Part shown: piece after piece, positions 4,708-60,135 of the stretch
How positions within the stretch are numbered: position 1 is the stretch's first letter
Layout of the letters: the number at the start of each line of letters is the position of its first letter
Assembly: GCF_963921235.1 (NCBI RefSeq)
Contig: NC_086108.1
Span: forward strand, 77,192,001 to 77,256,000
DNA length: 64,000 bases
Origin: Mobula hypostoma
Taxonomy: Eukaryota
Direction of reading: 5' to 3'
Program-made: the position numbers and the translations under genes
Notes under the pieces: generated by a model
Database searches by the model: none
What the model was told of the DNA's origin: nothing
The model's input: the letters and a program-made list of their open reading frames with translations, nothing else

Positions 4708-7132
4708 TAGAAACATAGAAACATAGAAAATAGGTGCAGGAGTAGGCCATTCGGCCCTTCGAGCCTGCACCGCCATTTATTATGATCATGGCTGATCATC
4801 CAACTCAGAACCCTGCCCCAGCCTTCTCTCCATACCCCCTGACCCCTGTAGCCACAAGGGCCATATCTAACTCCCTCTTAAACATAGCCAATGAACTGGC
4901 CTCAACAGTTTCCTGTGGCAGAGAATTCCACAGATTCACCACTCTCTGTGTGAAGAAGTTTTTCCTAATCTCGGTCCTAAAAGGCTTCCCCTCTATCCTC
5001 AAACTGTGACCCCTCGTTCTGGACTTCCCCAACATCGGGAACAATCTTCCTGCATCTAGCCTGTCCAATCCCTTTAGGATCTTATACGTTTCAATCAGAT
5101 CCCCCCTCAGTCTTCTAAATTCCAACGAGTACAAGCCCAGTTCATCCAGTCTTTCTTCATATGAAAGTCCTGCCATCCCAGGAATCAATCTGGTGAACCT
5201 TCTTTGTACTCCCTCTATGGTAAAGATGTCTTTCCTCAGATTAGGGGACCAAAACTGCACACAATACTCCAGGTGTGGTCTCACCAAGGCCTTGTACAAC
5301 TGCAGTAGTACCTCCCTGCTCCTGTACTCGAATCCTCTCGCTATAAATGCCAGCATACCATTCGCCTTTTTCACCGCCTGCTGTACCTGCATGCCCACTT
5401 TCAATGACTGGTGTATAATGACACCCAGGTCTCGTTGCACCTCCCCTTTTCCTAATCGGCCACCATTCAGATAATAATCTGTTTTCCTATTTTTGCCACC
5501 AAAGTGGATAACTTCACATTTATCCACATTAAATTGCATCTGCCATGAGTTTGCCCACTCACCCAACCTATCCAAATCACCCTGCATCCTCTTAGCATCC
5601 TCCTCACAGCTAACATTGCCACCCAGCTTCGTGTCATCCACAAACTTGGAGATGCTGCATTTAATTCCCTCATCCAAGTCATTAATATATATTGTAAAAA
5701 ACTGGGGTCCCAGCACTGAGCCTTGCGGTACCCCACTAGTCACCGCCTGCCATTCTGAAAAGGTCCCGTTTATTCCCACTCTTTGCTTTCTGTCTGCTAA
5801 CCAATTCTCCACCCACACCGATACCTTACCCCCAATACCGTGTGCGTTAAGTTTGCACACTAATCTCCTGTGTGGGACCTTGTCAAAAGCCTTTTGAAAA
5901 TCCAAATATACCACATCCACTGGTTCTCCCCTATCCACTCTACTAGTTACATCCTCAAAAAATTCTATGAGATTCGTCAGACATGATTTTCCTTTCACAA
6001 ATCCATGCTGACTTTGTCCGATCATTTCACCGCTTTCCAAGTGTGCTGTTATCACATCCTTGATAACTGACTCCAGCAGTTTCCCCACCACCGACGTTAG
6101 GCTAACCGGTCTATAATTCCCCGGTTTCTCTCTCCCACCTTTTTTAAAAAGTGGGGTTACATTAGCCACCCTCCAATCCTCAGGAACTAGTCCAGAATCT
6201 AACGAGTTTTGAAAAATTATCACTAATGCATCCACTATTTCTTGGGCTACTTCCTTAAGCACTCTAGGATGCAGACCATCTGGGTCTGGGGATTTATCTG
6301 CCTTCAATCCCTTCAATTTACCTAACACCACTTCCCTACTAACATGTATTTCACTCAGTTCCTACATCTCACTGGACCCTCTGTCCCTTACTATTTCTGG
6401 AAGATTATTTATGTCCTCCTTAGTGAAGACAGAACCAAAGTAATTATTCAATTGGTCTGCCATGTCCTTGCTCCCCATAATCAATTCACCTGTTTCTGTC
6501 TGCAGGGGACCTACATTTGTCTTTACCAGTCTTTTCCTTTTTACATATCTATAAAAGCTTTTACAGTCCGTTTTTATGTTCCCCGCCAGTTTTCTCTCAT
6601 AATCTTTTTTCCCCTTCCTAATTAAGCCCTTTGTCCTCCTCTGCTGAACTCTGAATTTCTCCCAGTCCTCAGGTGAGCCACTTTCTCTGGCTAATTTGTA
6701 TGCTACTTCTTTGGAATTGATACTGTCCCTAATTTCCCTTGTCAGTCATGGGTGCACTACCTTCCTTCATTTATTCTTTTGCCAAACTGGGATGAACAAT
6801 TGTTGTAGTTCATCCATGCAACCTTTAAATGCTTGCCATTGCATATCCACCGTCAATCCTTTAAGTGTCATTTGCCAGTCTATCTTAGCTAATTCATGTC
6901 TCATACCTTCAAAGTTACCCCTCTTTAAGTTCAGAACCTTTGTTTCTGAATTAACTATGTCACTCTCCATATTAATGAAGAATTCCACCATATTATGGTC
7001 ACTCTTACCCAAGGGGCCTCTCACGACAAGATTGCTAATTAACCCTTCCTCATTGCTCAAAACCCATCCAGAATAGCCTGCTATCTAGTTGGTTCTTCGA
7101 CATGTTGGTTCAAAAAAAAAAAAAAAAAAAAT
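4708..7132 (-). mobile_element. 5'-truncated young CR1 LINE, sibling of the full-length copy
   Basis: Nearly identical to 20968-23372. It has a (TTTCTATG)n tail at about 4706-4730 and a candidate 8-bp TSD TGGTTTCA (4700-4707 and 7133-7140), and sits inside a Penelope-tail repeat. Confidence 0.95.
4805..7060 (-). pseudogene. CR1 ORF2 remnant (RT domain open over 4805-6331)
   Basis: Motifs NYRPVSLTS, QHGF, YLDFQKAFDKVPH, GVPQGSVLGP and FVDD. There is an in-frame stop near 6363 and the 5' end is truncated. Confidence 0.92.
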
Positions 7133-15053: not shown

Positions 15054-15129
15054 TGCCATGTACAGAGCCTCCAACAGCTGATCAGCTGGGCCTGATGTTC
15101 TGTTCTGTCCTGCAATGTTCAGTCAGCAG

Positions 15130-16995
15130 CACCGGCTTAGAATCAGCCCTTGCCCCACACCTCCCGTCTCTACATCCTACCTAGGATCCATAAATCTACC
15201 TGTCGAAGTAGACCCATCATTTCTGCTTGTTCCTTCCCCACCGAACTTACATCTGCAGATCTCCACTCGGTTTTATCCCCCTGATTCAGTCCCTAACTAC
15301 CTACATCCTGACACTTCACATGCTCTTGATCTTTCAATGACTTTGAGTTCCCTGGCCCTGATCATCTCATTTTCACTATGGACGTTCAGTCCCGATACAC
15401 ATCCATCCCCCATTAGGAGGGTCTTAAAGCTCTCCATGTTAACCAGTTCCCCTCCACGTCCCCTCTGCCTCGCAGTACTTGTCCTCACCTCAATAATTTC
15501 TCCTTTGACTCCTACCACTTTCTTCAAACCAAGGTGTAGCCATGGGCACTTGCATAGGTCCCAGCTATGTCTGCCTATTCATCTGCTCTGTAGAACAGTC
15601 CATGTTCCGAGCCTACACAGGCATTGCTCCCCAGCTCTTCCTATGCTACATCGGTGACTGCTTTGGTCCGGCTTCCTGCACCCATGTTGAGCTCAGCGAC
15701 TTCATCAGCTTTGCCTCCAACCTCCACCCAGCCCTCAAGTTTGCTTGGTCCATTTCTGACACCTCCCTCCCTTTTCTTGATCTGTCTGTCTCTATATTTG
15801 GAGACAGTCTATCCACTGATAACTTTTATAAACTCACTGACTCTCACAGCTATCTGGACGATACCTCTTCCCATGCTGTCACTTGTCAAAATGCCATTCC
15901 CTTCTCTCAGTTCCTCCGTCTCTGCTGCATCTGCTCTCGGGATGAAGCTTTTCTTTCCAAAACTACTAAGATGTCCTCCTTCTTCAAAGAAAGGGGCTTC
16001 CCTTCCTCCACCATCAATGCTGCCCTCACCTACATCTCTTCCATTTCATGCATGTGTGCCCTCACCTCATCCTCCTACCACCCTACCAAGGATACGGTTC
16101 TTCTAGTCCTCACCTACCACCCCCTTAGAGTCTGTGTCCACCACAGAATACTCTGTAATTTCCACCATCTCCACCCCCAAGAACATTTTTCCCTCCCCCA
16201 CACTATCTGCTTTCTGCAGGGATCTCCCCCTCGGGGCTCTAAATAGTCCTTCCAGGTGAGGCGACACTTCACCTGCACGGCTTTTGAGGTCATCTACTGT
16301 ATTTGGTGCTCCCCGGTGTGGTCTCCTGTATATTGGTGAGACCCGACATAGATTAGGAGACTGCTTTGCCCAGCACCTATGCTCCGTCCACTAGAAAAAA
16401 ATGGGAGCTCCTGGTGGCCACCCATTTCAGTTCTACTTCCCGCTCCCATTCCGACATTTCCAGTCATGGACTCCTCTGCAGCCATGATGCGGCCACACTC
16501 AGTTTGGAGAAGCAACACCTTATATTTCATCTGGGTAGCCTCCAACCTGATGGCATAAACATCGAATTTTCGGTAATTGTCGTTTCCCCTTTACCATTCC
16601 ACATTCCTGTTTCCCTCTCTTACCTTATCTCTTTACCTGCCCGTCACCTCCCTCTGCTCCTCCCCCTTCCCTTTCTTCCATGGTCTTCTATCCTCTCCTA
16701 TCAGATTCCACCTTCTCCAGCCCTTTACCTCTGTCACCAATCAGCTTCACAGCTCTTTACTTCAAACCCTCCCCGCTCCCGGTTTCACCTCATCTACCAG
16801 CTTGTACTTCTCCTCCCCTCCCCCCACCTTCTTACTCTGCCTTCTCATCTTTCTTTCCAGTCCTGATGAAGGGACTCAGCCCGAAGTGTCGACTGTTCAC
16901 TTGTTTTCAGAAGTGCTGCCTGGCCTGCTGAGTTCCTCCAGCATTTTGTGTGTGATGCTTTGAATTTCCAGTATCTGCAGCGTTTCTTGTGTTTG
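15130..16995 (+). mobile_element. Penelope-like element, 5'-truncated and degenerate (RT C-terminus, GIY-YIG endonuclease, terminal repeat)
   Basis: GVAMGTCIGPSYVCLF..YIGDCFG..LPFLDLSV..YKLTDSHSYL..AIPFSQFLRL. A GIY-YIG remnant (VIYCIWCS..LLYIGET) lies at about 16288-16345, followed by a pyrimidine-rich tail. Confidence 0.9.
16858..16895 (+). ncRNA. Degenerate minimal type I hammerhead ribozyme motif in the Penelope tail
   Basis: CAGUC-CUGAUGA-A-GGG-ACUCAG-CCC-GAAGU-GUC-GACUG. Stem I (CAGUC/GACUG), stem II (GGG/CCC) and the CUGAUGA box are intact, but GAAAC is mutated in this copy. Confidence 0.7.
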
Positions 16996-20049: not shown

Positions 20050-20967
20050 TGGATGCGGTTTTCTATGCCTGGACTCTGCTTCCACCACACTCACATGCAA
20101 AGTATTCAGCTACTCACCATTCTCAAGGTAAAAAAGAATTCTCTCATATACCAACTAAATCTATTCTCCTTTATCCTAAATCTATATCCTTTAGTTTTAT
20201 TCACTTCGGATAAAGGGAAATACTGCCAGCAGTCTACCATATCATACTTCAATAATGTACCAGTGTAAACTCCTCCACTTCAGCTAAAACAGTCTCTCAT
20301 AACTGAAACTTTCCATCCCTGGTGCATTTCCTCTGCCCCACCTTTAGCGCCATAACATCCTTCTTATCGTTTGGTAACTAGAACTGTACACAGTACTCAG
20401 TTTGAGGTCTTATTTATTTGTTTATTTAGAGATGCAGCATGGTTATAACCAATGCTTTCTAAGGTTTGAGTAGTACCTCACTGCCCCAACTAATGTAAGT
20501 CAGTACCTCAAAGGCCTTCTTCTCTGTAATACCTACTTGCACTACTACCAGCAAGATTCTTTACTCTCTCTCTTCCTCGGTATTCCCCAAGACCTTACCC
20601 TTCATACTGAATGTCTTGCCCACATTAATATATTCTAAATTCAACACCTCATATTTTCCAGAATTAAACTCCATCTGCCATTTCTTGGCACTTTTCACCA
20701 ACACATCAATATCATGCTGTGGCATCAGACACACCAGTGACAAAACCAAGCTCCTACTATCACCCTCCGTATGCTTTTGCCAAGTCAGTTTTGGACCCAT
20801 GAGCCCTAATCATCTAGATCATTCTTCCAAGAGGGACCTTGTCAAAAGCCATATTGAAATCCAGGTAGAACACATCTACTGTACTGCCTTCATCTATACA
20901 TTTTAGTACCTACTCAAAAAAATCCATTCATGTCCTTGACAAAGCCATGCTGGCTATCTCTGGTTGA
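20050..20967 (-). mobile_element. Old CR1 ORF2 fragment, host of the full-length CR1
   Basis: AKKWQMEFNSGKYEVL remnant and a DFxxAFDKVP-like segment. It resumes at about 25354. Confidence 0.8.
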
Positions 20968-21058
20968 CATAGAAACATAGAAAATAGGTGCAGGAGTAGG
21001 CCATTCGGCCCTTCGAGCCTGCACCGCCATTTATTATGATCATGGCTGATCATCCAAC

Positions 21059-24000
21059 TCAGAACCCCGCCCCAGCCTTCCCTCCATACCCCCTGACCCC
21101 TGTAGCCACAAGGGCCATATCTAACTCCCTCTTAAACATAGCCAATGAACTGGCCTCAACAGTTTCCTGTGGCAGAGAATTCCACAGATTCACCACTCTC
21201 TGTGTGAAGAAGTTTTTCCTAATCTCGGTCCTAAAAGGCTTCCCCTCTATCCTCAAACTGTGACCCCTCATTCTGGACTTCCCCAACATCGGGAACAATC
21301 TTCCTGCATCTAGCCTGTCCAATCCCTTTAGGATCTTATACGTTTCAATCAGATCCCCCCTCAATCTTCTAAATTCCAACGAGTACAAGCCCAGTTCATC
21401 CAGTCTTTCTTCATATGAAAGTCCTGCCATCCCAGGAATCAATCTGGTGAACCTTCTTTGTACTCCCTCTATGGCAAAGATGTCTTTCCTCAGGTTAGGG
21501 GACCAAAACTGCACACAATACTCCAGGTGTGGTCTCACCAAGGCCTTGTACAACTGCAGTAGTACCTCCCTGCTCCTGTACTCGAATCCTCTCGCTATAA
21601 ATGCCAGCATACCATTCGCCTTTTTCACTGCCTGCTGTACCTGCATGCCCACTTTCAATGACTGGTGTATAATGACACCCAGGTCTCGTTGCCCCTCCCC
21701 TTTTCCTAATCAGCCACCATTCAGATAATAATCTGTTTTCCTATTTTTGCCACCAAAGTGGATAACTTCACATTTATCCACATTAAATTGCATCTGCCAT
21801 GAGTTTTCCCACTCACCCAACCTATCAAAGTCACCCTGCATCCTCTCAGCATCCTCCTCACTGCTAACACTGCCACCCCGCTTCGCGTCATCCGCAAACT
21901 TGGAGATGCTGCATTTAATTCCCTCATCCAAGTCAATAATATATATTGTAAACAACTGGGGTCCCAGCACTGAGCCTTGCGGTACCCCACTAGTCACCGC
22001 CTGCCATTCTGAAAAGGTCCCGTTTATTCCCACTCTTTGCTTCCTGTCTGCTAACCAATTCTCCACCCACACCGATACCTTACCCCCAATACCGTGTGCT
22101 TTAAGTTTGCACACTAATCTCCTGTGTGGGACCTTGTCAAAAGCCTTTTGAAAATCCAAATATACCACATCCACTGGTTCTCCCCTATCCACTCTACTAG
22201 TTACATCCTCAAAAAATTCTATGAGATTCGTCAGACATGATTTTCCTTTCACAAATCCATGCTGACTTTGTCCGATCATTTCACCGCTTTCCAAGTGTGC
22301 TGTTATCACATCCTTGATAACTGACTCCAGCAGTTTCCCCACCACCGACGTTAGGCTAACCGGTCTATAATTCCCCGGTTTCTCTCTCCCACCTTTTTTA
22401 AAAAGTGGGGTTACATTAGCCACCCTCCAATCCTCAGGAACTAGTCCAGAATCTAACGAGTTTTGAAAAATTATCACTAATGCATCCACTATTTCTTGGG
22501 CTACTTCCTTAAGCAGTCTGGGATGCAGACCATCTGGCCCTGGGGATTTATCTGCCTTCAATCCCTTCAATTTACCTAACACCACTTCCCTACTAACATG
22601 TATTTCACTCAGTTTCTCCATCTCACTGGACCCTCTGTCCCTTACTATTTCTGGAAGATTATTTATGTCCTCCTTAGTGAAGACAGAACTAAAGTAATTA
22701 TTCAAATGGTCTGCCATGTCCTTGCTCCTCATAATCAATTCACCTGTTTCTGTCTGCAGGGGACCTACATTTGTCTTTACCAGTCTTTTCCTTTTTACAT
22801 ATCTATAAAAGCTTTTACAGTCCGTTTTTATGTTCCCCGCCAGTTTTCTCTCATAATCTTTTTTCCCCTTCCTAATTAAGCCCTTTGTCCTCCTCTGCTG
22901 AACTCTGAATTTCTCCCAGTCCTCAGGTGAGCCACTTTCTCTGGCTAATTTGTATGCTACTTCTTTGGAATTGATACTATCCCTAATTTCTCTTGTCAGC
23001 CACGGGTGCACTACCTTCCTTGATTTATTCTTTTGCCAAACTGGGATGAACAATTGTTGTAGTTCATCCATGCAACCTTTAAATGCTTGCCATTGCATAT
23101 CCACCGTCAATCCTTTAAGTGTCATTTGCCAGCCTATCTTAGCTAATTCACGTCTCATACCTTCAAAGTTACCCCTCTTTAAGTTCAGAACCTTTGTTTC
23201 TGAATTAACTATGTCACTCTCCATATTAATGAAGAATTCCACCATATTATGGTCACTCTTACCCAAGGGGCCTCTCACGACCAGATCGCTAATTAACCCT
23301 TCCTCATTGCTCAAAACCCAGTCCAGAATAGCCTGCTCTCTAGTTGGTTCCTCGATATGTTGGTTCAAAAAACCATCCCGCATACATTCTAAGAAATCCT
23401 CTTCCTCAGCACCTTTACCAATTTGGTTCACCCAGTCTACATGTAGATTGAAGTCACCCATTATAACTGCTGTTCCTTTATTGCACACATTTCTAATTTC
23501 CTGTTTAATACCATCTCCGACCTCACTACTACTGTTAGGTGGCCTGTACACAACTCCCACCAGCGTCTTCTGCCCCTTAGTGTTACGCAGCTCTACCCAT
23601 ATCGATTCCACATCTTCCCGGCTTATGTCCTTCCTTTCTATTGCGTTAATCTCTTCTTTAACCAGCAACGCCACCCCACCTCCCCTTCCTTCATGTCTAT
23701 CCCTCCTGAATATTGAATATCCCTGAACGTTGAGCTCCCATCCCTGGTCACCCTGGAGCCATGTCTCTGTGATCCCAACTATATCACAATCATTAATAAC
23801 AATCTGCACTTTCCATTCATCCACCTTATTACGAATGCTCCTTGCATTGACACATAAAGCCTTCAGGCGCTCTTTTACAACTCTCTTAGCCCTTATACAA
23901 TTATGCTGAAAAGTGGCCCTTTTTAATGCTTGCCCTGGATTTGTCGGCCTGCCACTTTTACTTTTCTCCTTTGTACTTTTTGCTTCTACCCTCACTTTAC

Positions 24001-24112
24001 ACCCCTCTGTCTCTCTGCACTGGTTCCCATCCCCCTGTTGTGAACTAACCTCCTCACGCCTAGCCTCTTTAATTTGATTCCCACCCCCCAACCATTCTAG
24101 TTTAAAGTCACC
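21059..24112 (-). pseudogene. CR1 ORF2 (APE endonuclease + reverse transcriptase) with one premature TGA at 21710-21712
   Basis: EN motifs NARS, GITETW, VYRPP, MGDFN, LDWVL and SDH. RT motifs YLDFQKAFD, GVPQGSVLGP and FADD. ORFs 21710-24091 and 21059-21658 are in the same frame, and siblings have CGA at the stop position. Confidence 0.93.
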
Positions 24113-25032
24113 TCAGTAGCCCCCGCTAATCTCTCTGCCAGGATATTAGTCCCCCTAGGATTCAAGTGTAACCCATCCTTTTTGTACAGGTCACGCCTGC
24201 CCCAGAAGAGGTCCCAATGATCCAAAAACTTGAATCCTTGCCCCCTGCTCCAATCCCTCAGCCACGCATTTATCCTCCACCTCATCGCATTCCTACTCTC
24301 ACTGTCGCGTGGCACAGGCAGTAATCCTGAGATTACTACCTTTGCGGTCCTTTTTCTTAACTCCCTTCCTAGCTCCCTATATTCTCCTTTCAGGACCTCA
24401 TCCCTTTTCCTACCTATGTCATTGGTACCTATATGTACCACGACCTCTGGCTCCTCACCCTCCCACTTCAGGATATCTTGGACACGATCAGAAATATCCC
24501 GGACCCTGGCACCAGGGAGGCAAACTACCATCCGGGTCTCTGGACTGTGTCCACAGAATCGCCTATCTGACCCCCTTACTATTGAGTCCCCTATCACAAC
24601 TGCCCTCCTCTTCCTTGCCCTACCCTTCTGAGCTACAGGGCCAGACTCTGTGACGGAGGCACGGCCACTGTCGCTTCCCCTGGGTAAGCTGTCCCCCCCA
24701 ACAGTACTCAAACAGGAGTACCTGTTGTTAAGGGGCACAGCCACCGGGGTACTCCCCATCACCTGACTTTTCCCCTTCCCCCTCCTAACCGTGACCCACT
24801 TGTCTGCCTCCCGTGGCCCCGGCGTGACCACCTGTCTTCCACTCCTCTCTATCACCTCCTCGCTCTCCCTGACCAGACAAAGGTCATCGAGCTGCAGCTC
24901 CAGTTCCGTAACGCGGTCCCTTAGGAGCTGCATCTCGATGCACTTGGCGCAGATGTAGACGTCCGGGAGGCTTGGAGACTCCAGGGCCTCCCACATCCGA
25001 CACCGAGAACAGCAAACTGCCCTCACAGTCAT
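24097..25032 (-). CDS. CR1 ORF1 protein: Cys zinc-finger/leucine zipper plus SGNH/GDSL esterase domain (about 311 aa from the ATG at 25032)
   Basis: CSRC..CAKC followed by heptad leucines (LRDRVTELELQLDDL), then esterase blocks IGDSIVRG, HIGTNDI and DGLHLN. Confidence 0.9.
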   Translation of the reverse strand: MTVRAVCCSRCRMWEALESPSLPDVYICAKCIEMQLLRDRVTELELQLDDLCLVRESEEVIERSGRQVVTPGPREADKWVTVRRGKGKSQVMGSTPVAVPLNNRYSCLSTVGGDSLPRGSDSGRASVTESGPVAQKGRARKRRAVVIGDSIVRGSDRRFCGHSPETRMVVCLPGARVRDISDRVQDILKWEGEEPEVVVHIGTNDIGRKRDEVLKGEYRELGRELRKRTAKVVISGLLPVPRDSESRNAMRWRINAWLRDWSRGQGFKFLDHWDLFWGRRDLYKKDGLHLNPRGTNILAERLAGATEVTLN

Positions 25033-25089
25033 AATGCCTCTCTCCTCAAATAGCAACAGAAAATGAATTTCAAACCTTCCTCGCCTCAC

Positions 25090-25350
25090 CCGCTTCCGCC
25101 TAAGCCCGTTGAGCTGAAGCTCTTAAGTCTTCACTCTGCTCCCGGCTCACTCCGCAGCCCGCAAACTACGCTGCCCGCTCTATGAGGCTTTGTTCCTTTT
25201 AAATCTGCCGCGCTGCACTGCCCGACGTCACACGCCTGCGCAGTCCCGCCTCTCAGAAAGCCGTTGGAGAAAAAAAATAACGAAAATTTCAAAAATCTCT
25301 TTCTCGGCACTCCCAGTCAGACTCTCAGACTCCTTCTTCGAATCTTGCCT
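25090..25350 (-). promoter_or_regulatory. CR1 5' UTR, putative internal promoter
   Basis: CpG-rich segment in an otherwise CpG-depleted window, with GC-box-, CRE- and TATA-like words at 25195-25252. Confidence 0.5.
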
Positions 25351-28319: not shown

Positions 28320-29320
28320 TTTCTATGCAGAGCAGTGTACGACCTGCTCCCAACACCTGCCAACCCCAGCACCTGGTATAAGACAGACAGGTGTGTTGTT
28401 TGTGGTGAGAAGGGAACACTTCAACATATTTTGAGTGCATGCAGAGTCAATCTTTCCAGCGGCATGTACACTTAGAGACATAACAACGTTCTCAAAGTTG
28501 TAACAGAAGCAGTTGAGCAGAGAGTACTGCAGCACAACTTATCTCATGCCCCATGCTGCACAGAACATCGCATATCAATTGTGAAAGAAGGCTCCAAGTC
28601 AAGGGTGTACAGCGCAGGCTCACGATCAAGCTTACTTTCTTCAGCCAGTGACTGGTGTGTCAAGGCTGACCTGGATGGGAAAGACAGTTTCCCGGAGCAA
28701 ATAGTTTTCACAACATTGCGTCCAGATGTAATCGTATGGTCAGACACCAGTAGAGAAGTAGTTATTGGTGAACTCACAGTCCCCTGGGAAGACAACATCG
28801 ATGAAGCCCATGAGCGCAAGTTAACCAAGTATGCAGAATTAAGATCAGAGTGCAGAGACAGAGGGTGGAAGGTCTCATACTATCCATTCGAAGTAGGTTG
28901 CTGTGGCTTTATTGCGTTCACTTTCCAGAAGTGGCTGCATGACCTTGGCTTCACTAAAACAGAGATCAAGTCAACCAGCAGGGCTGCAGCTGAGGCAGCA
29001 GAGACAGGATCAGCATGGGTGTGGACCAAATACGTCCAGAGGGGCAGATAGTCAGACAGTGTATCCACCTTTTGCAAACCCTTCAGTAGTTGCATCGAGG
29101 AGACACCTGAAGAGCAGACTATTTGTTGGATGGAAGCGACCAACAACTCTGATAGAGGCAGATGCCAAGTTTTTAAGCTCATGAGTGGGAGGTGGTGCTT
29201 TAGCACTGCTGGCACGCCACCTCGAGGGAGTCTTGATCATAAGTGGGCCGAAACTCCTGAAAGCAGGTGGCACATCAACTGATGATCCCACTGGTGATAG
29301 CACAGGACAGTTAACATCTT
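28320..29320 (+). mobile_element. HERO-like non-LTR retrotransposon 3' fragment (CCHC + restriction-like endonuclease)
   Basis: LCGEKGTLQHILSAC..RHNNVL..LRPDVIVWS..IGELTVPWED..HERKLTKY..PFEVGCCGF..SAWVW. The stop is at 29051 and a 3' UTR follows. Confidence 0.85.
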
Positions 29321-44799: not shown

Positions 44800-45465
44800 T
44801 TTGACCGGACATAGATTGGGAGACCATTTCAGCAAGTATCTACGCTCCAACTGCCAGAGAAGCGGGGTCTCCCAGTGGCAACCCGGTTTAATTCCACTTC
44901 AGTACTGTATCCTATTCCGATATGTCAATCCATGGCCTCCTCTACTGTTGCGATGAGGCCACACTCAGGTTGGAGGAACAACTCCTTATATTTTGTCTGG
45001 ATAGCTTCCAATCTGATGGCATGAACATCGATTTCTCGAACATCTGGTAATGGCTCCTCACCACCCTCCTTCTTCACCAGTCCCCATCCCCTTTTCCCTC
45101 TCTCACCTTGTCTCCTTGCCCACCCATCACCTTCCTCTGGTGCTCCTCCTCCCCTTTTCTTACTTCCATGGCCTTCTATCCTCACCTATCAGACTCCCCC
45201 TTCTCCAGCCCTCTATCTCTTTCAGCAATCAACTTCCCAACACTTTACTTCACCTACCCCCTCTCCCAGTTTCACCTATCACCTTGTGTTTCACCATCCC
45301 CTCCCCCAACCCTCTAACTCTGACTCCTCGTCTTTTTTTCTCCAGTCCTGTTGACGGGTCTCGGCCTGAAATGTCAATTGTATTTTTTTCCATTGATTCT
45401 GCCTGGTCGGCTGAGTTCCTCCAGCATTTTGTGTGTGTTGCTTGGATTTCCAGCATCTCTCGTTT
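44800..45465 (+). mobile_element. Penelope 3' fragment (GIY-YIG end plus terminal repeat)
   Basis: HRLGDHFSKYLRS..EATLRLEEQLLIFCLDSFQSDGMNIDFSN, followed by the same tail as 16570-16995. Confidence 0.85.
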
Positions 45466-45496
45466 GTGATTATGTTTGGTCCTTTTATTTTTGTTC

Positions 45497-47533
45497 AAGG
45501 AATGAATAAACCAGGGAAGGTAGTGCACCCGTGGCTGACAAGGGAAATTAGGGATGGTATCAGTTCCAAAGAAGAAACATACAAATTAGCCAGAAAAAGC
45601 GGTGCAGAGGAGGACAAAGGGCTTAATTAGGAAAAGGAAAAAAGATTATGAGAGAAAGCTGGCAGGGAACATAAAAACTGACTGTAAAAGCTTTCATAGA
45701 TATGTGAAAAGAAAAAGATTGGTTGAGACAGATGTAGGTCCCTTACAGTCAGAAACAGGTGAATTGATCATGGGGAACAAAGACATGGCAGACCAATTGA
45801 ATACTTTGGTTCTGTCTTCACTAAGGAGGACATAAATAGTCTTCCAGAAATAATAGGGGACCGAGGGTCTAGTGAGATGGAGGAACTGAGGGAAATACAT
45901 GTTAGTAGGGAAGTGGTGTTAGGTAAATTGAAGGGATTAAAGGCAGATAAATCCCCAGGGCCAGATGGTCTGCATCCCAGAGTGCTTAAGGAAGTAGCCC
46001 AAGAAATAATGGATGCATTAGTGATAATTTTTCAAAACTCTTTAGATGCTGGATTAGTTCCTGAGGATTGGTGGGTGGCTAATGTAACCCCGCTTTTTAA
46101 AAAAAGGAGGAAGAGAGAATCCAGGGAATTATAGACCGGTTAGCCTGACATCGGTGGTGGGGAAAATGCTAGAGTCAGTTATTAAAGATGTGATAACAGC
46201 ACATTTGGAAAGCGGTGAAGTCATCGGACAAAGTCAGCATGGATTTGTGAAAGGAAAATCATGTCTGACGAATCTCATAGAATTTTTTGAGGATGTAACT
46301 AGTAGAGTGGATAGGGGAGAACCAGCGGATGTGGTATATTTGGATTTTCAAAAGGCTTTTGACAAGGTCCCACACAGGAGATTAGTGTGCAAACTTAAAG
46401 CACACGGTATTGGGGGTATGGTATTGATGTGGATAGAGAATTTGTTGGGAGACAGGAAGCAAAGATTGGGAATAAACGGGACATTTTCAGAATGGCAGGC
46501 AGTGACTAGTGGGGTACCGCAAGGCTCTGTGCTGGGACCCCAGTTGTTTACAATATATATTAATGACTTAGATGAGGGAATTAAATGCAGCATCTCCAAG
46601 TTTGCGGGTGACACGAAGCTGGGTGGCAGTGTTAGCTGTGAGGAGGATGCTAAGAGGATGCAGAGTGACTTGGATAGGTTGGGTGAGTGGGCAAATTCAT
46701 GGCAGATTCAATTTAATGTGGATAAATGTGAGATTATCCACTTTGGTGGCAAGAACAGGAAAACAGATTATTATCTGAATGGTGGCCGATTAGGAAAAGG
46801 GGAGGTGCAATGAGACCTGGGTGTCATTGTATACCAGTCATTGAAAGTGGGCATGCAGGTACAGTAGGCGAACGGTATGCTGGCATTCATAGCAAGAGGA
46901 TTTGAGTACAGGAGCAGGGAGGTACTACTGCAGTTGAACATTTGTACAAGGCCTTGGTGAGACCACACCTGGAGTGCTGTGTGCAGTTTTGGTCCCCTAA
47001 TCTGAGGAAAGCCATTCTTGCCATAGAGGGAGTACAAAGAAGTTTCACCAGATTGATTCCTGGGATGGCAGGACTTTCATATGATGAAAGACTGGATTGA
47101 CTAGGCTTATACTCTCTGGAATTTAGAAGATTGAGGGAGGATTTGATTGAAACGTATAAAATTCTGAAGGGATTGGACAGGCTAGATGCAGGAAGATTGT
47201 TCCCAATGTTGGGGAAATCCAGAACGAGGGGTCACAGTTTAAGGATAAAGGGGAAGCCTTTTAGGACTGAGATGAGGAAAAATTTCTTCACACAGAGAGT
47301 GGCGAATCTGTGGAATTCTCTGCCACAGGAAACAGTTGAGGCCAGTTCATTGGCTATATTTAAGAGGGAGTTAGATATGGCCCTTGTGGCTAAAGGGATC
47401 AGGGGGAATGGAGGGAAGACAGGTTCAGGGTTCTGAGTTGGATGATCAGCCATGATCGTACTGAATGGCGGTGCAGGCTTGAAGGGCCAAATGGTCTACT
47501 CCTGCACCTATTTTCTATGTTTCCATGTTTCTA
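45497..47533 (+). mobile_element. 5'-truncated CR1 LINE, more diverged sibling of the full-length copy
   Basis: Same ORF2 sequence with frameshifts and stops, FAGD at the catalytic site, an internal deletion near 45600 and a TTTCTATG tail. Confidence 0.93.
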
Positions 47534-57198: not shown

Positions 57199-60135
57199 CA
57201 GAAACATAGAAAACCTACAGCACAATACAGGCCCTTCGGCCCACAAATTTGTGCAAAACATGTCCCTACCTTAGAAATTATTAGAGTTACCCATAGCCGT
57301 CTATTTTTCTAAGCTCCGTGTACCTATCCAAAAGTCTCTTAAAAGACCCCATCGTATCCACCTCCTCCACCATTTCTGGCAGCCCATTCCACGCACTCAC
57401 CACTCTCTGTGTAAAAAACTTACCCCTGACATCTCCTCTGTACCTGCTCCCAAACACCTTAAACCTGTGCCCTTTTGTGGCAGCCATTTCAGCCCTGGGA
57501 AAAAGCCTCTGACTATTCACATGATCAATGCCTCTCATCATCTTATACACCTCTATCAGGTCATCTCTCATCCCACTCCAAGGAGAAAAGGCCGAGTTCA
57601 CTCAACCTGTTTTCATAAGGCATGCTCCCCAATCCAGGCAACATCCTTGTACATCTCCTCTGCACCCTTTCTATGGCTTCCACATCCATCCTGTAGTGAG
57701 GCAACCAGAACTGAGCACAGTATTCCAAGTGTGGTCTGACCAGGGTCCTACATAGCTGCAACATTACCTCTCGGCTCCTAAATTCAATTCCACGATTGAT
57801 GAAGGCCAATACATCGTATGCCTTCTTAAGCACAGAGTCAACCTGCCAGGTGCTTTGAGTGTCCTATGGACTTGGACCTCAAGATCTATCTGATCCTCCA
57901 CACTGCCAAGAGTCTTACCATTAATACTATATTCTGTCATCACATTTGACCTACCAAAATGAACCACTTCACATTTATCTGGGTTGAACTCCATCTGCCA
58001 CTTCTCAGCCCAGTTTTGCATCCTATCAATGTCTCTCTGCAAACTCTGACAGCCCTCTACACAATCCACAACACCCCCAACCTTTGTGTCATCAGCAAAT
58101 GTACTAACCCATCCCTCCACTTCCTCATCCAGGTCATTTATAAAAATCACGAAGAGTAAGGGTCCCATAACAGATCCCTGAGGCACACCACTGGTCACCG
58201 ACCTCCATGCAGAATATGACCCCTCTACAACGACTCTTTGTCTTCTGTGGGTAAGCCAGTTCTGGATCCACAAAGCAATGTCCCCTTGGATCCCATGCCT
58301 CCTTAATTTCTCAATAAGCCTTGCATGGTGTACCTTATCAAATGCCTTGCTGAAATCCATATACACTGTATCTACTGCTCTTCCTTCATCAATGTGTTTA
58401 GTCACATCCTGAAAAAATTCAATCAGGCACGACCTACTCTTGATAGAGCCATGCTGACTATTCCTAATCATATTATATCTCTCCAAATGTTCATAACTCC
58501 TGCCTCTCAGGATCTTCTCCATCAACTTACCAACCACTGAAGTAAGACTCACTGGTCTATAATTTCCTGGGCTATCTCTACTCCCTTTCTTGAATAAGGG
58601 AACAACATCCACAACCCTCCAATCCTCTGGAACCTCTCCCGTTCCCATTGATGATGCAAAGATCATCGCCAGAGGCTCAGCAATCTCCTCCCTTGCCTTG
58701 CGCGGTAGCCTGGGGTACATCTCATCCGGTCCAGGCGACTTATCCAACTTGATGCTTTCCAAAAGTTCCAGCACATCCTCTTTCTTAATATCTCCATGTT
58801 CAAGCTTTTCAGTCCACTGCAAGTGATCACTACAATTACCAAGATCCTTTTCCATAGTGAATACTGAAGTAAAGTATTCATTAAGTACCTCTGCTATTTC
58901 CTCCGGTTCCATACACAATTTCCCACTCTCACACTTGATAGGTCCTATTCTTTCATGTCTTATCCTCTTGCTCTTCACATACTTGTAGAATTCCTTGGAG
59001 CTTTCCTTAATCCTGTCCCCCAAGGCCTTCTCATGGCCCCTTCTGGCTCTCCTAATTTCCTTCCTAAGCTCCTTCTTGTTAGCCTTATAATCTTCTAGAT
59101 CTCTAATATTACCTAGCTCGCTGAACCTTTCGTAAGCTTTTCTTTTCTTCTTGACTAGATTTACTGCAGCCTTTGTACACCATAGTTCCTGTACCCTACC
59201 ATAACTTCCCTGTCTCATTGGAATGTATCTATGCAGAACTTCACACAAATATCCCCTGAACACTTGTCATATTTCTTCTGTACCTTTCCCTGAGAACATC
59301 TGTTCCCAGTTTAAGCTTCCAAGTTCCTGCCTGATAGCCTCATAATTCCCCTTACTCCAATTAAATGCTTTTCTAACTTGTCTGTTCCTATCTCTCTCCA
59401 ATGCTATTGTAAAGGAGATAGAATTACGATCACTATCTCCAAAATGCTCTCCCACTGAGAGATCTGACACCTGACCAGGTTCATTTCCCAATACCAAATC
59501 AAGTACAGACTCTCTTCTTGTAGGCTTATCTACATATTGTGTCAAGAAACCTTCCTGAACACACCTAACAAACTCCACCCCATCTAAACCCCTTGCTCTA
59601 GGGAGATGCCAATCGATATTAGGGGAATTAAAATCTCCCACCATGACAACTCTGTTATTATTACAACTTTCCAGGATCTGTTTCCCTACCTGCTCCCTGA
59701 TATCCCTGTTACTATTGGGCGGCCTATAAAAAAACACCCAGTAGAGTTATTGACCCCTTCCTGTTCCTAACCTCCACCCACAGAGACTCTGTAGACAATC
59801 CCTCCATGATGTCCACCTTTTCTGCAGCCATGACACTATCCCTGATCAGCAGTGCCACACCCCCACCTCTTTTGCCTCCCTCCCTGTCCTTTCTGAAATA
59901 TCTAAAACCCAGCACTTGAAGTAACCATTCCTGTCCCTGAGCCATCCAGGTCTCTGTAATGGCCACCACATCATAGCTCAAAGTACTGATCCACGCTCTA
60001 AGCTCATCCGCATTGTTCACAATACTCCTTGCGTTAAAATAGATGCATCTCAAACCGTTGGTCTGAGCACGTTCCTTCTTTATCACCTGCCTATCCTCCC
60101 TCACACACTGTCTCCAAGCTTCCACTATCTGTGAA
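57199..60135 (-). mobile_element. CR1 LINE of a second family, nearly complete ORF2 with frameshifts and a stop, lacking ORF1
   Basis: EN (YFNARS, AITETW, YRPP, VGDFN) and RT (YMDFSKAFD, FADDTK) are spread over ORFs 59724-60125, 59267-59737, 57764-59263, 57561-57833 and 57287-57601. Candidate TSD AGGAA, inserted in the end of a MITE. Confidence 0.93.

Follow-up and report, generated by a model that had tools for sequence, protein, structure and literature searches.

The CR1 element and its ORF junction

We analysed a 64,000-nt stretch of the Mobula hypostoma genome (contig NC_086108.1, positions 77,192,001 to 77,256,000; hereafter the window). A full-length copy of a CR1 LINE, assigned to family A, lies at 20967..25344 on the minus strand, as delimited by its 5′ edge, its 3′ end and its copies in the genome. 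The 5′ end was placed where the copies stop matching, most commonly at 25339-25344, and the 3′ end consists of a stem-loop followed by a TTTCTATG-type tail. Family A gave 2713 first-look candidates in the genome. ORF1 (24097..25032, minus strand, ATG at 25032), identified by direct reading and Pfam, encodes 311 aa with an SGNH/GDSL esterase at aa 146-294 (PF13472, E 4.7e-17) and a Cys-rich N-terminal part, a putative zinc finger. The ORF1 profile A3 matches PDB 4C1B, 'ORF1-encoded protein', with an E-value of 2.4e-49, and the nearest named ORF1 protein comes from a ray (95%). The ORF2 frame (21062..24112, minus strand; Pfam PF03372, PF14529 and PF00078) carries an APE endonuclease at about 23800-23249 and a reverse transcriptase (RT) at about 22390-21737, both on the minus strand. 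In the window copy the ORF2 frame runs for 800 codons and is broken late by a TGA at 21712-21710; a sense codon stands there in 6/6 other copies that were checked. Pfam detected no protease domain.

The 3′ UTR (20967..21061, minus strand) folds into a nested stem-loop (-31.2 kcal/mol, z -2.19) with a short tandem tail, a layout common to families A, B, C, E and F. Copies of the element end in a short tandem-repeat tail without poly(A), and many are dispersed and 5′-truncated. The element is a CR1 LINE of the esterase-ORF1 type, with an esterase ORF1, APE and RT in ORF2 and a 3′ stem-loop, the same architecture as that described for canonical vertebrate CR1 elements with an esterase ORF1 (PMC13343379). 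It probably belongs to the CR1 clade rather than to L2, judging by the layout of its 3′ end and by the turtles, squamates and birds in which ORF1 homologues occur. In most vertebrate species, the CR1 group dominates among retrotransposons (PMC13343379). More retroelement pieces lie in the window at 4713-7117 (minus), 45424-47528 (plus), 57764-60113 (minus), 28476-29051 (plus) and 15082-16866 (plus); they include a 98% identical 5′-truncated family A copy, a 90% copy and a more distant CR1, and two are element fragments of a different type.

Direct reading of the minus strand confirmed that ORF1 ends with GTG ACT TTA AAC TAG, as the first-pass annotation had read it. The heptamer T_TTA_AAC (24100..24106, minus strand), the predicted site of a -1 shift, stands in X_XXY_YYZ phase and is directly followed on its 3′ side by the ORF1 stop UAG (24097..24099, minus strand), which is UAG or UAA in other lineages. 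Upstream, the -1 frame is shut by a TGA at 24113..24115 (minus strand), giving the claimed overlap of 16 nt, and the last upstream stop in that frame also lies at -16 in most family A copies. Past the heptamer the -1 frame reads LEWLGGGN, and the codon at 24091 is a TTG and not an ATG; both readings agree with the first pass. An ATG at 24095 lies in another frame and opens only 8 codons (MVGGWESN). The first in-frame ORF2 ATG (23459..23461, minus strand) was correctly placed inside the endonuclease, 215 codons after the heptamer and past the NARS (codon 86), ETW and YRPP motifs; an open -1-frame linker of about 84 codons (23849..24100, minus strand) joins the shift site to NARS. The proposed fusion of about 1,320 aa holds for an unbroken frame (1,324 aa), while the product of the window copy itself would end at 1,107 aa because of the TGA at 21712-21710. 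TTTAAAC by itself is not rare, with 19 occurrences in the window on both strands; what lifts this heptamer above chance is its phase, position and conservation.

Conservation of the junction across copies and lineages

We compared the 30 best family A copies from 40 scored among the 2713 candidates, a similarity-picked set in which one copy is the window itself. Six Gs were present at 24089-24084 in 30/30 of these copies, and TTTAAACTAG in 29/30. The first-pass annotation had pointed out that five Gs would bring the AUG at 24095 into frame with ORF2; this escape from recoding falls away because six Gs are found family-wide. In a wider set the heptamer was identical in 42/44 family A copies, of which 38/44 were mappable and 33 had the endonuclease in the -1 frame. 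Among these 33 in-frame copies, the -1 frame was open from the heptamer to NARS in 29 and the other two frames in none; no copy (0/33) had a Met before NARS and the endonuclease, and the first in-frame AUG was at codon 215 in 20/33. Counted from the heptamer, three natural copies, L139, L145 and L157, have uninterrupted frames of 1015, 1039 and 997 aa. Assembled run contigs (7 distinct runs in all) listed no difference of at least 8%, no indel and no joint at the heptamer, stop or G tract; such contigs drop rare variants, and this uniformity was not counted as evidence.

Frame correction at the RNA level, by polymerase slippage on T3A3, editing or a spliced ORF2 mRNA, would also join the two frames. 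We found no support for it beyond the short homopolymer runs of the motif, and runs of three are short for transcriptional slippage. Furthermore, new insertions would be copied from the altered RNA, whereas most copies show one fixed phase; the signal also stands in tRNA phase. Such a correction is thus very improbable.

When diverged ORF1 proteins were used as queries, five families besides A emerged in this genome, and a metagenome scan yielded host-derived contigs with 28 loci, among which four complete junctions (L091, L093, L096 and L097) appear bird-like from their likeness to stork gene models. Together with families A-F these make ten lineages with DNA; the lineages are related, and counts over them are not independent. 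Families A-F are 54-84% identical in aa among themselves, and the bird-like loci are 27-37% identical to the ray families. The junction reads nnT TTA AAC TAR in 10/10 lineages with an identical heptamer, which is also found in L094 and L114, and the endonuclease lies in the -1 frame in 10/10 lineages, 39-110 codons on from the heptamer. Over ORF1 aa 141-311 there are 18 invariant-residue columns, and only C171, L310 and N311 use a single codon. L310 is TTA and N311 is AAC in 10/10 lineages, while background codon use is 20/157 for TTA among Leu and 17/52 for AAC among Asn; at codon 309 the residue varies (T, A, G, D, C, S) and the third base is always T. The first-pass annotation had named synonymous variation of the heptamer as evidence against a shift; none was seen over the ten lineages, whereas the codon varies in 15/16 of the other invariant-residue columns. 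At four-fold sites, ray and bird sequences agree in only about a third of cases, and synonymous sites between them look saturated. In family C, the -1 frame was open in 17/18 in-frame copies and the other two frames in 0. Taken together, these results show that the junction feature is real and conserved at the nucleotide level.

Given that ORF2 lies one base back and that the slippery signal is identical in ten lineages, ribosomes likely slip at this site and make one fused protein. The fixed six Gs, the invariant heptamer and the -1 phase conserved across linkers of different length all speak for the frameshift proposed at first pass, and a -1 programmed ribosomal frameshift at U_UUA_AAC is, in our judgement, very probably the right reading of the CR1 ORF1/ORF2 junction.

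Single family C copies also carry mutational in-frame fusions with open frames of 474-707 aa; in L062, L073 and L082, changes in G-run length just upstream of the heptamer put ORF1 in the ORF2 frame.

ORF1 tails and start codons

We then considered the C-terminal ends of ORF1 proteins. Among 120 listed homologues, 45 lacked the motif or a tail length, and 72/75 with a measurable tail end in LN; the homologues come from sharks, rays, coelacanth, frogs, turtles, squamates and a bird. In frameshifted copies or gene models (stingray; 8 stork models) and in a distant family, F-K-L appears in the ORF2 frame, a reading that fits T TTA AAC TA. Two CR1 ORF1 proteins (P0022 and P0089) have entries that name Pseudomonas aeruginosa and the flatworm Protopolystoma xenopodis as source; host-DNA contamination of those assemblies is the likely cause.

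A more distant ORF1 set comprised the best 150 representatives at 50% identity, 117 of them with a tail. The exact terminal tripeptide was compatible with X_XXY_YYZ in 62/117 (background 3.5% per position), while 1000 tail shuffles gave a mean of 7.2 and a maximum of 16. A compatible tripeptide was found near the end in 95/117, against a shuffle mean of 40.8 and maximum of 61; the search profile itself held LN, GN, FF, FL and GF ends and therefore favours matches with such ends. The near-end types were LN (40), GN (18), KN (13) and GF (8), which are the dipeptides of the four shiftiest known heptamers (PMC5009743). The preceding residue permits the needed base in 42/44 LN, 20/20 GN, 14/14 KN and 9/9 GF cases, compared with a background of 0.76-0.80; the GN, KN and GF evidence is at the protein level only. 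No compatible tripeptide was found near the end in 22/117 (e.g. CRG, SSN and EN ends). One distant clade is mostly [Q/V/K/A]GN-ended (12 of the 26 members that have a tail, out of 28). From 114 of the proteins a quick tree was built with the tail left out; it gave 30 end-type changes over 11 groups, and its starred branches force at least 4, 3, 2 and 3 changes for LN, GN, KN and GF, respectively. Distant relatives thus appear to swap between canonical heptamers.

Searches of viral contigs and genome contigs returned no DNA relatives of the non-LN clades, and own-genome searches with P0049 and P0021 gave no match at E cut-offs that were overly strict. Among 26 longer matches there was no natural single-ORF family and only gene-model chimeras, which is weak evidence. 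Another distant clade (P0249, P0262, P0268, P0275, P0281, P0284, P0286, P0288, P0290, P0295 and P0301) has xKN at the homologous position followed by about 11 more ORF1 residues, possibly an A_AAA_AAC site with a longer overlap and without an adjacent stop.

The constant LN end might instead be a matter of the protein or of chance: the esterase would need Leu-Asn, and family A would be moved in trans by the ORF2p of family E, with no recoding. LN is nearly invariant in vertebrate CR1 ORF1, and family E has a near-identical ORF2 and 3′ UTR with an AUG at the stop, both in favour of this explanation. However, protein selection fixes neither the codons TTA and AAC nor the third base of the preceding codon, and neither L, G and K nor N and F are like-for-like residues. 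Alignment with the solved esterase stops at position 319 of the 323 in the profile, short of the terminal LN. In addition, -1 is the only frame in which the linker stays open, and copies intact over 1015 aa exist in family A. Between families A and E, codons 81-214, which precede the first Met, gave dS 0.146, dN 0.020 and an omega of 0.14, like the omega of 0.11 downstream of the first Met, suggesting that the AUG-less part of the family A endonuclease has been translated under selection and is probably still under purifying selection. The linker is open but unconstrained in sequence (A-versus-E omega about 1.9 over 55 codons). The polarisable family-A-specific changes in codons 81-214 number just 3-4 (3 synonymous, 0-1 non-synonymous), so these data only weaken trans-mobilisation by family E. 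As a whole, this explanation of the LN end seems to us highly unlikely.

The ORF2 and 3′ UTR of family A are nearly those of family E (dN 0.02), and its ORF1 is only 65% identical. A relic of the family E junction motif lies at 24023..24037 (minus strand), 48 nt downstream of the family A junction, and the distances to the same endonuclease position are 227 versus 179 nt. Family A therefore looks like a chimera in which a new ORF1 and junction were joined to an E-type ORF2 with the -1 phase kept; the signal lies at 24023-24085 (minus strand) of the window and at loci L129-L131 and L153-L155.

The lack of an AUG could not be extended to CR1 elements in general, as only families A and D are without a Met before the endonuclease. 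An in-frame Met precedes it at codon 18 in C, 3 in E, 38 in F, 4 in three bird-like loci and 22 in L097, as well as in most mapped family B copies, which means that these lineages need no shift; the frame is open from the heptamer up to these scattered positions. A UAAUG stop-start occurs in family E (L153, L154 and L155) and in L114 with the slippery heptamer kept, an in-frame AUG lies 2 nt after the stop in L091, L093 and L096, and none of the 33 family A copies has an AUG of the ORF2 frame that overlaps or adjoins the stop.

These starts bear on termination-reinitiation, in which ribosomes would restart just downstream at an AUG or at a near-cognate codon such as the UUG at 24091 and release a free ORF2p, with the heptamer and G tract serving as the signal to reinitiate. 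It would account for the UAAUG of family E and L114 and for the AUG 2 nt past the stop in the three bird-like loci, and in A, C and D a UUG lies no more than 3 codons from the stop. Reinitiation is known for SART1 and L1, and its calicivirus version tolerates start-codon changes (PMC5972666, PMC2881922). However, the start shifts between lineages (Met at codon 3, 4, 18, 22, 38 or none), reinitiation needs neither a -1 overlap nor X_XXY_YYZ, and it leaves the interchange of LN, GN, KN and GF unexplained. We therefore consider it an unlikely explanation of the junction. Frameshifting and reinitiation might both operate in family E and L114, and in Met-bearing lineages reinitiation could act alongside or instead of frameshifting. 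For 2A skipping in family A, we found that the D(V/I)ExNPGP motif is absent and the linker has only TNPGQ, and this route was rejected.

The candidate stimulator and the proposed mechanism

The G-rich tract had been described as starting 6 nt past the heptamer, within the 5-9 nt where stimulators sit. Instead, the conserved run begins 10 nt after it, as GGGGG at +11..+15 within a GGGGG-NN-GG tract (24080..24089, minus strand). A structured stimulator at 5-9 nt is not supported, since the tract lies at +11 and its folding is no more stable than that of shuffled sequence; other families do not conserve the GG at +7/+8. GGGGG at +11..+15 was found in mapped copies of families A (36/38), C (16/24), D (7/7), E (2/3) and F (3/3), in the bird-like loci (4/4) and in the old, decayed family B (5/13), and followed by NN-GG it was seen in all ten lineages, decayed in family B. 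Local folding of 11 downstream segments gave z values of -2.2 to +2.5 with only one below -1, and in 10/11 segments no 3′ hairpin or pseudoknot fold 5-9 nt downstream beat shuffles; the folding does not model pseudoknots, and by inspection the segments are too C-poor for a shared stem.

No support was found in the rays for base pairing between the G tract and the 3′ UTR pyrimidine strand, which was not above composition controls in 7 copies. The 3′ UTR ranked in the top 0-5% of downstream windows for such pairing in 6/7 ray copies, but shuffled or other G-rich probes paired with it as well (fractions 0.07-0.95), and the NN of the tract varies (GU, CA, AG, AU) without the ray 3′ UTR following. 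Pairing of the bird-like junctions was nominally above controls (0.016-0.094 of shuffles), with a 3′ end taken from another copy. In these loci (L091, L093, L096 and L097) the G tract comes close to full complementarity with the pyrimidine strand of the stem-loop in the 3′ UTR; with the non-cognate 3′ ends of L110 and L117, pairing energies were -17.8 to -19.4 kcal/mol, and every other G-rich probe scored worse. No downstream pairing site elsewhere in the element was shared among the ten lineages.

The codons of ORF1 C171-L172-P173 (window 24520-24505, minus strand; CLPG) are unusually constant, in 10, 8 and 9 of 10 lineages, and this C-rich patch 420 nt upstream of the heptamer is possibly an RNA element; it is among the top four pairing sites of the tract in 5/10 lineages, with no covariation to test.

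Because no local hairpin or pseudoknot was found, our best guess, and the least certain part of the reading, is that the stimulator is the adjacent stop together with GGGGG-NN-GG, positioned at the mRNA entry channel and working through its sequence; the constant spacing and invariant GGG codons suggest such an element at the RNA level. The tract may act as a protein-binding site, a G-quadruplex or a long-range pairing arm. Its G4Hunter-like score is 0.7-1.4, and natural G-quadruplex stimulation was not yet known as of 2016 according to the review text (PMC5009743).

We propose that most ribosomes would stop at UAG and release ORF1p, and that a minority would slip back one base on U_UUA_AAC by tandem slippage of tRNA-Leu and tRNA-Asn. 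The slipped ribosomes would read CUA and cross the flexible linker into the endonuclease and RT, and the product, analogous to Gag-Pol, would be an esterase-linker-endonuclease-RT fusion with a length of 311 + 1,013 = 1,324 aa if the copy is unbroken. With most ribosomes stopping at UAG, the ratio of ORF1p to RT would be high; as no protease domain was found, the fusion would either remain in one piece or depend on cleavage by some other route.

Frameshifting by -1 is well known in viruses and LTR elements, and CR1 LINEs are best read as a new setting for this known mechanism, judging by their sequences. The heptamer and its phase are the same as in retroviral and coronaviral -1 frameshifting (Gag-Pol; IBV U_UUA_AAC) (PMC5009743). 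Like Gag-Pol systems, CR1 joins an RNA-binding-type ORF1 to a polymerase ORF in the -1 frame over a short overlap; unlike the viral systems, it is a non-LTR element with no hairpin or pseudoknot 5-9 nt downstream and no Pfam protease. In the arterivirus PRRSV, a protein stimulates frameshifting at an unstructured motif, CCCANCUCC, at 11 nt 3′ of the shift site (PMC5009743). The likeness to the CR1 tract is positional only (about 10-11 nt 3′), as the CR1 motif is G-rich and has no known binding protein. Among APE-type LINEs, ORF2 of Dictyostelium TRE5-A and TRE3-A is said in a review to require a -1 frameshift (PMC5911963); these differ from CR1 in LINE group, ORF1 type and host, and the likeness concerns the -1 shift alone.

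Reviews give reinitiation and 2A skipping as routes of LINE ORF2 translation (PMC5972666, PMC2881922, PMC3708506). SART1 and L1 (termination-reinitiation) and some CR1-clade elements (2A skipping) face the same problem of a bicistronic RNA (PMC5972666, PMC2881922, PMC3708506), but these routes yield a separate ORF2p, and family A has neither a stop-start AUG nor a 2A motif. Our literature search found no paper on CR1 frameshifting, and the original CR1 papers of 1997-2006 may mention the overlap. 'CR1' does not occur in 300,000 characters of the text of PMC5009743; in the main text of a 2026 survey (PMC13343379), the strings 'frameshift', 'overlap', 'translat' and 'start codon' are all absent (0 occurrences); the only frameshifts in PMC4255032 are those of decay; and PMC5006619 adds nothing on CR1 ORF2 translation.

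The widest form of the proposal is that vertebrate esterase-ORF1 CR1s and more distant esterase-ORF1 LINEs would make RT as a Gag-Pol-like -1 fusion, repeatedly swapping the four shiftiest heptamers, and that the vertebrate stimulator would be the +11 G tract, which would work via a protein bound to it (perhaps ORF1p), via a natural G-quadruplex or via the 3′ end of the element, and not via a local pseudoknot. For all of these parts to hold jointly, we see about an even chance.

Annotating ORF2 from its first AUG truncates the endonuclease in the window copy. If the proposal is true, the conserved -1 site would answer how CR1 makes RT, and the active CR1 enzyme would carry ORF1p at its N-terminus, which matters for rebuilding retrotransposition assays. 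It would also add a large natural class of eukaryotic frameshift sites whose stimulator is apparently unstructured.
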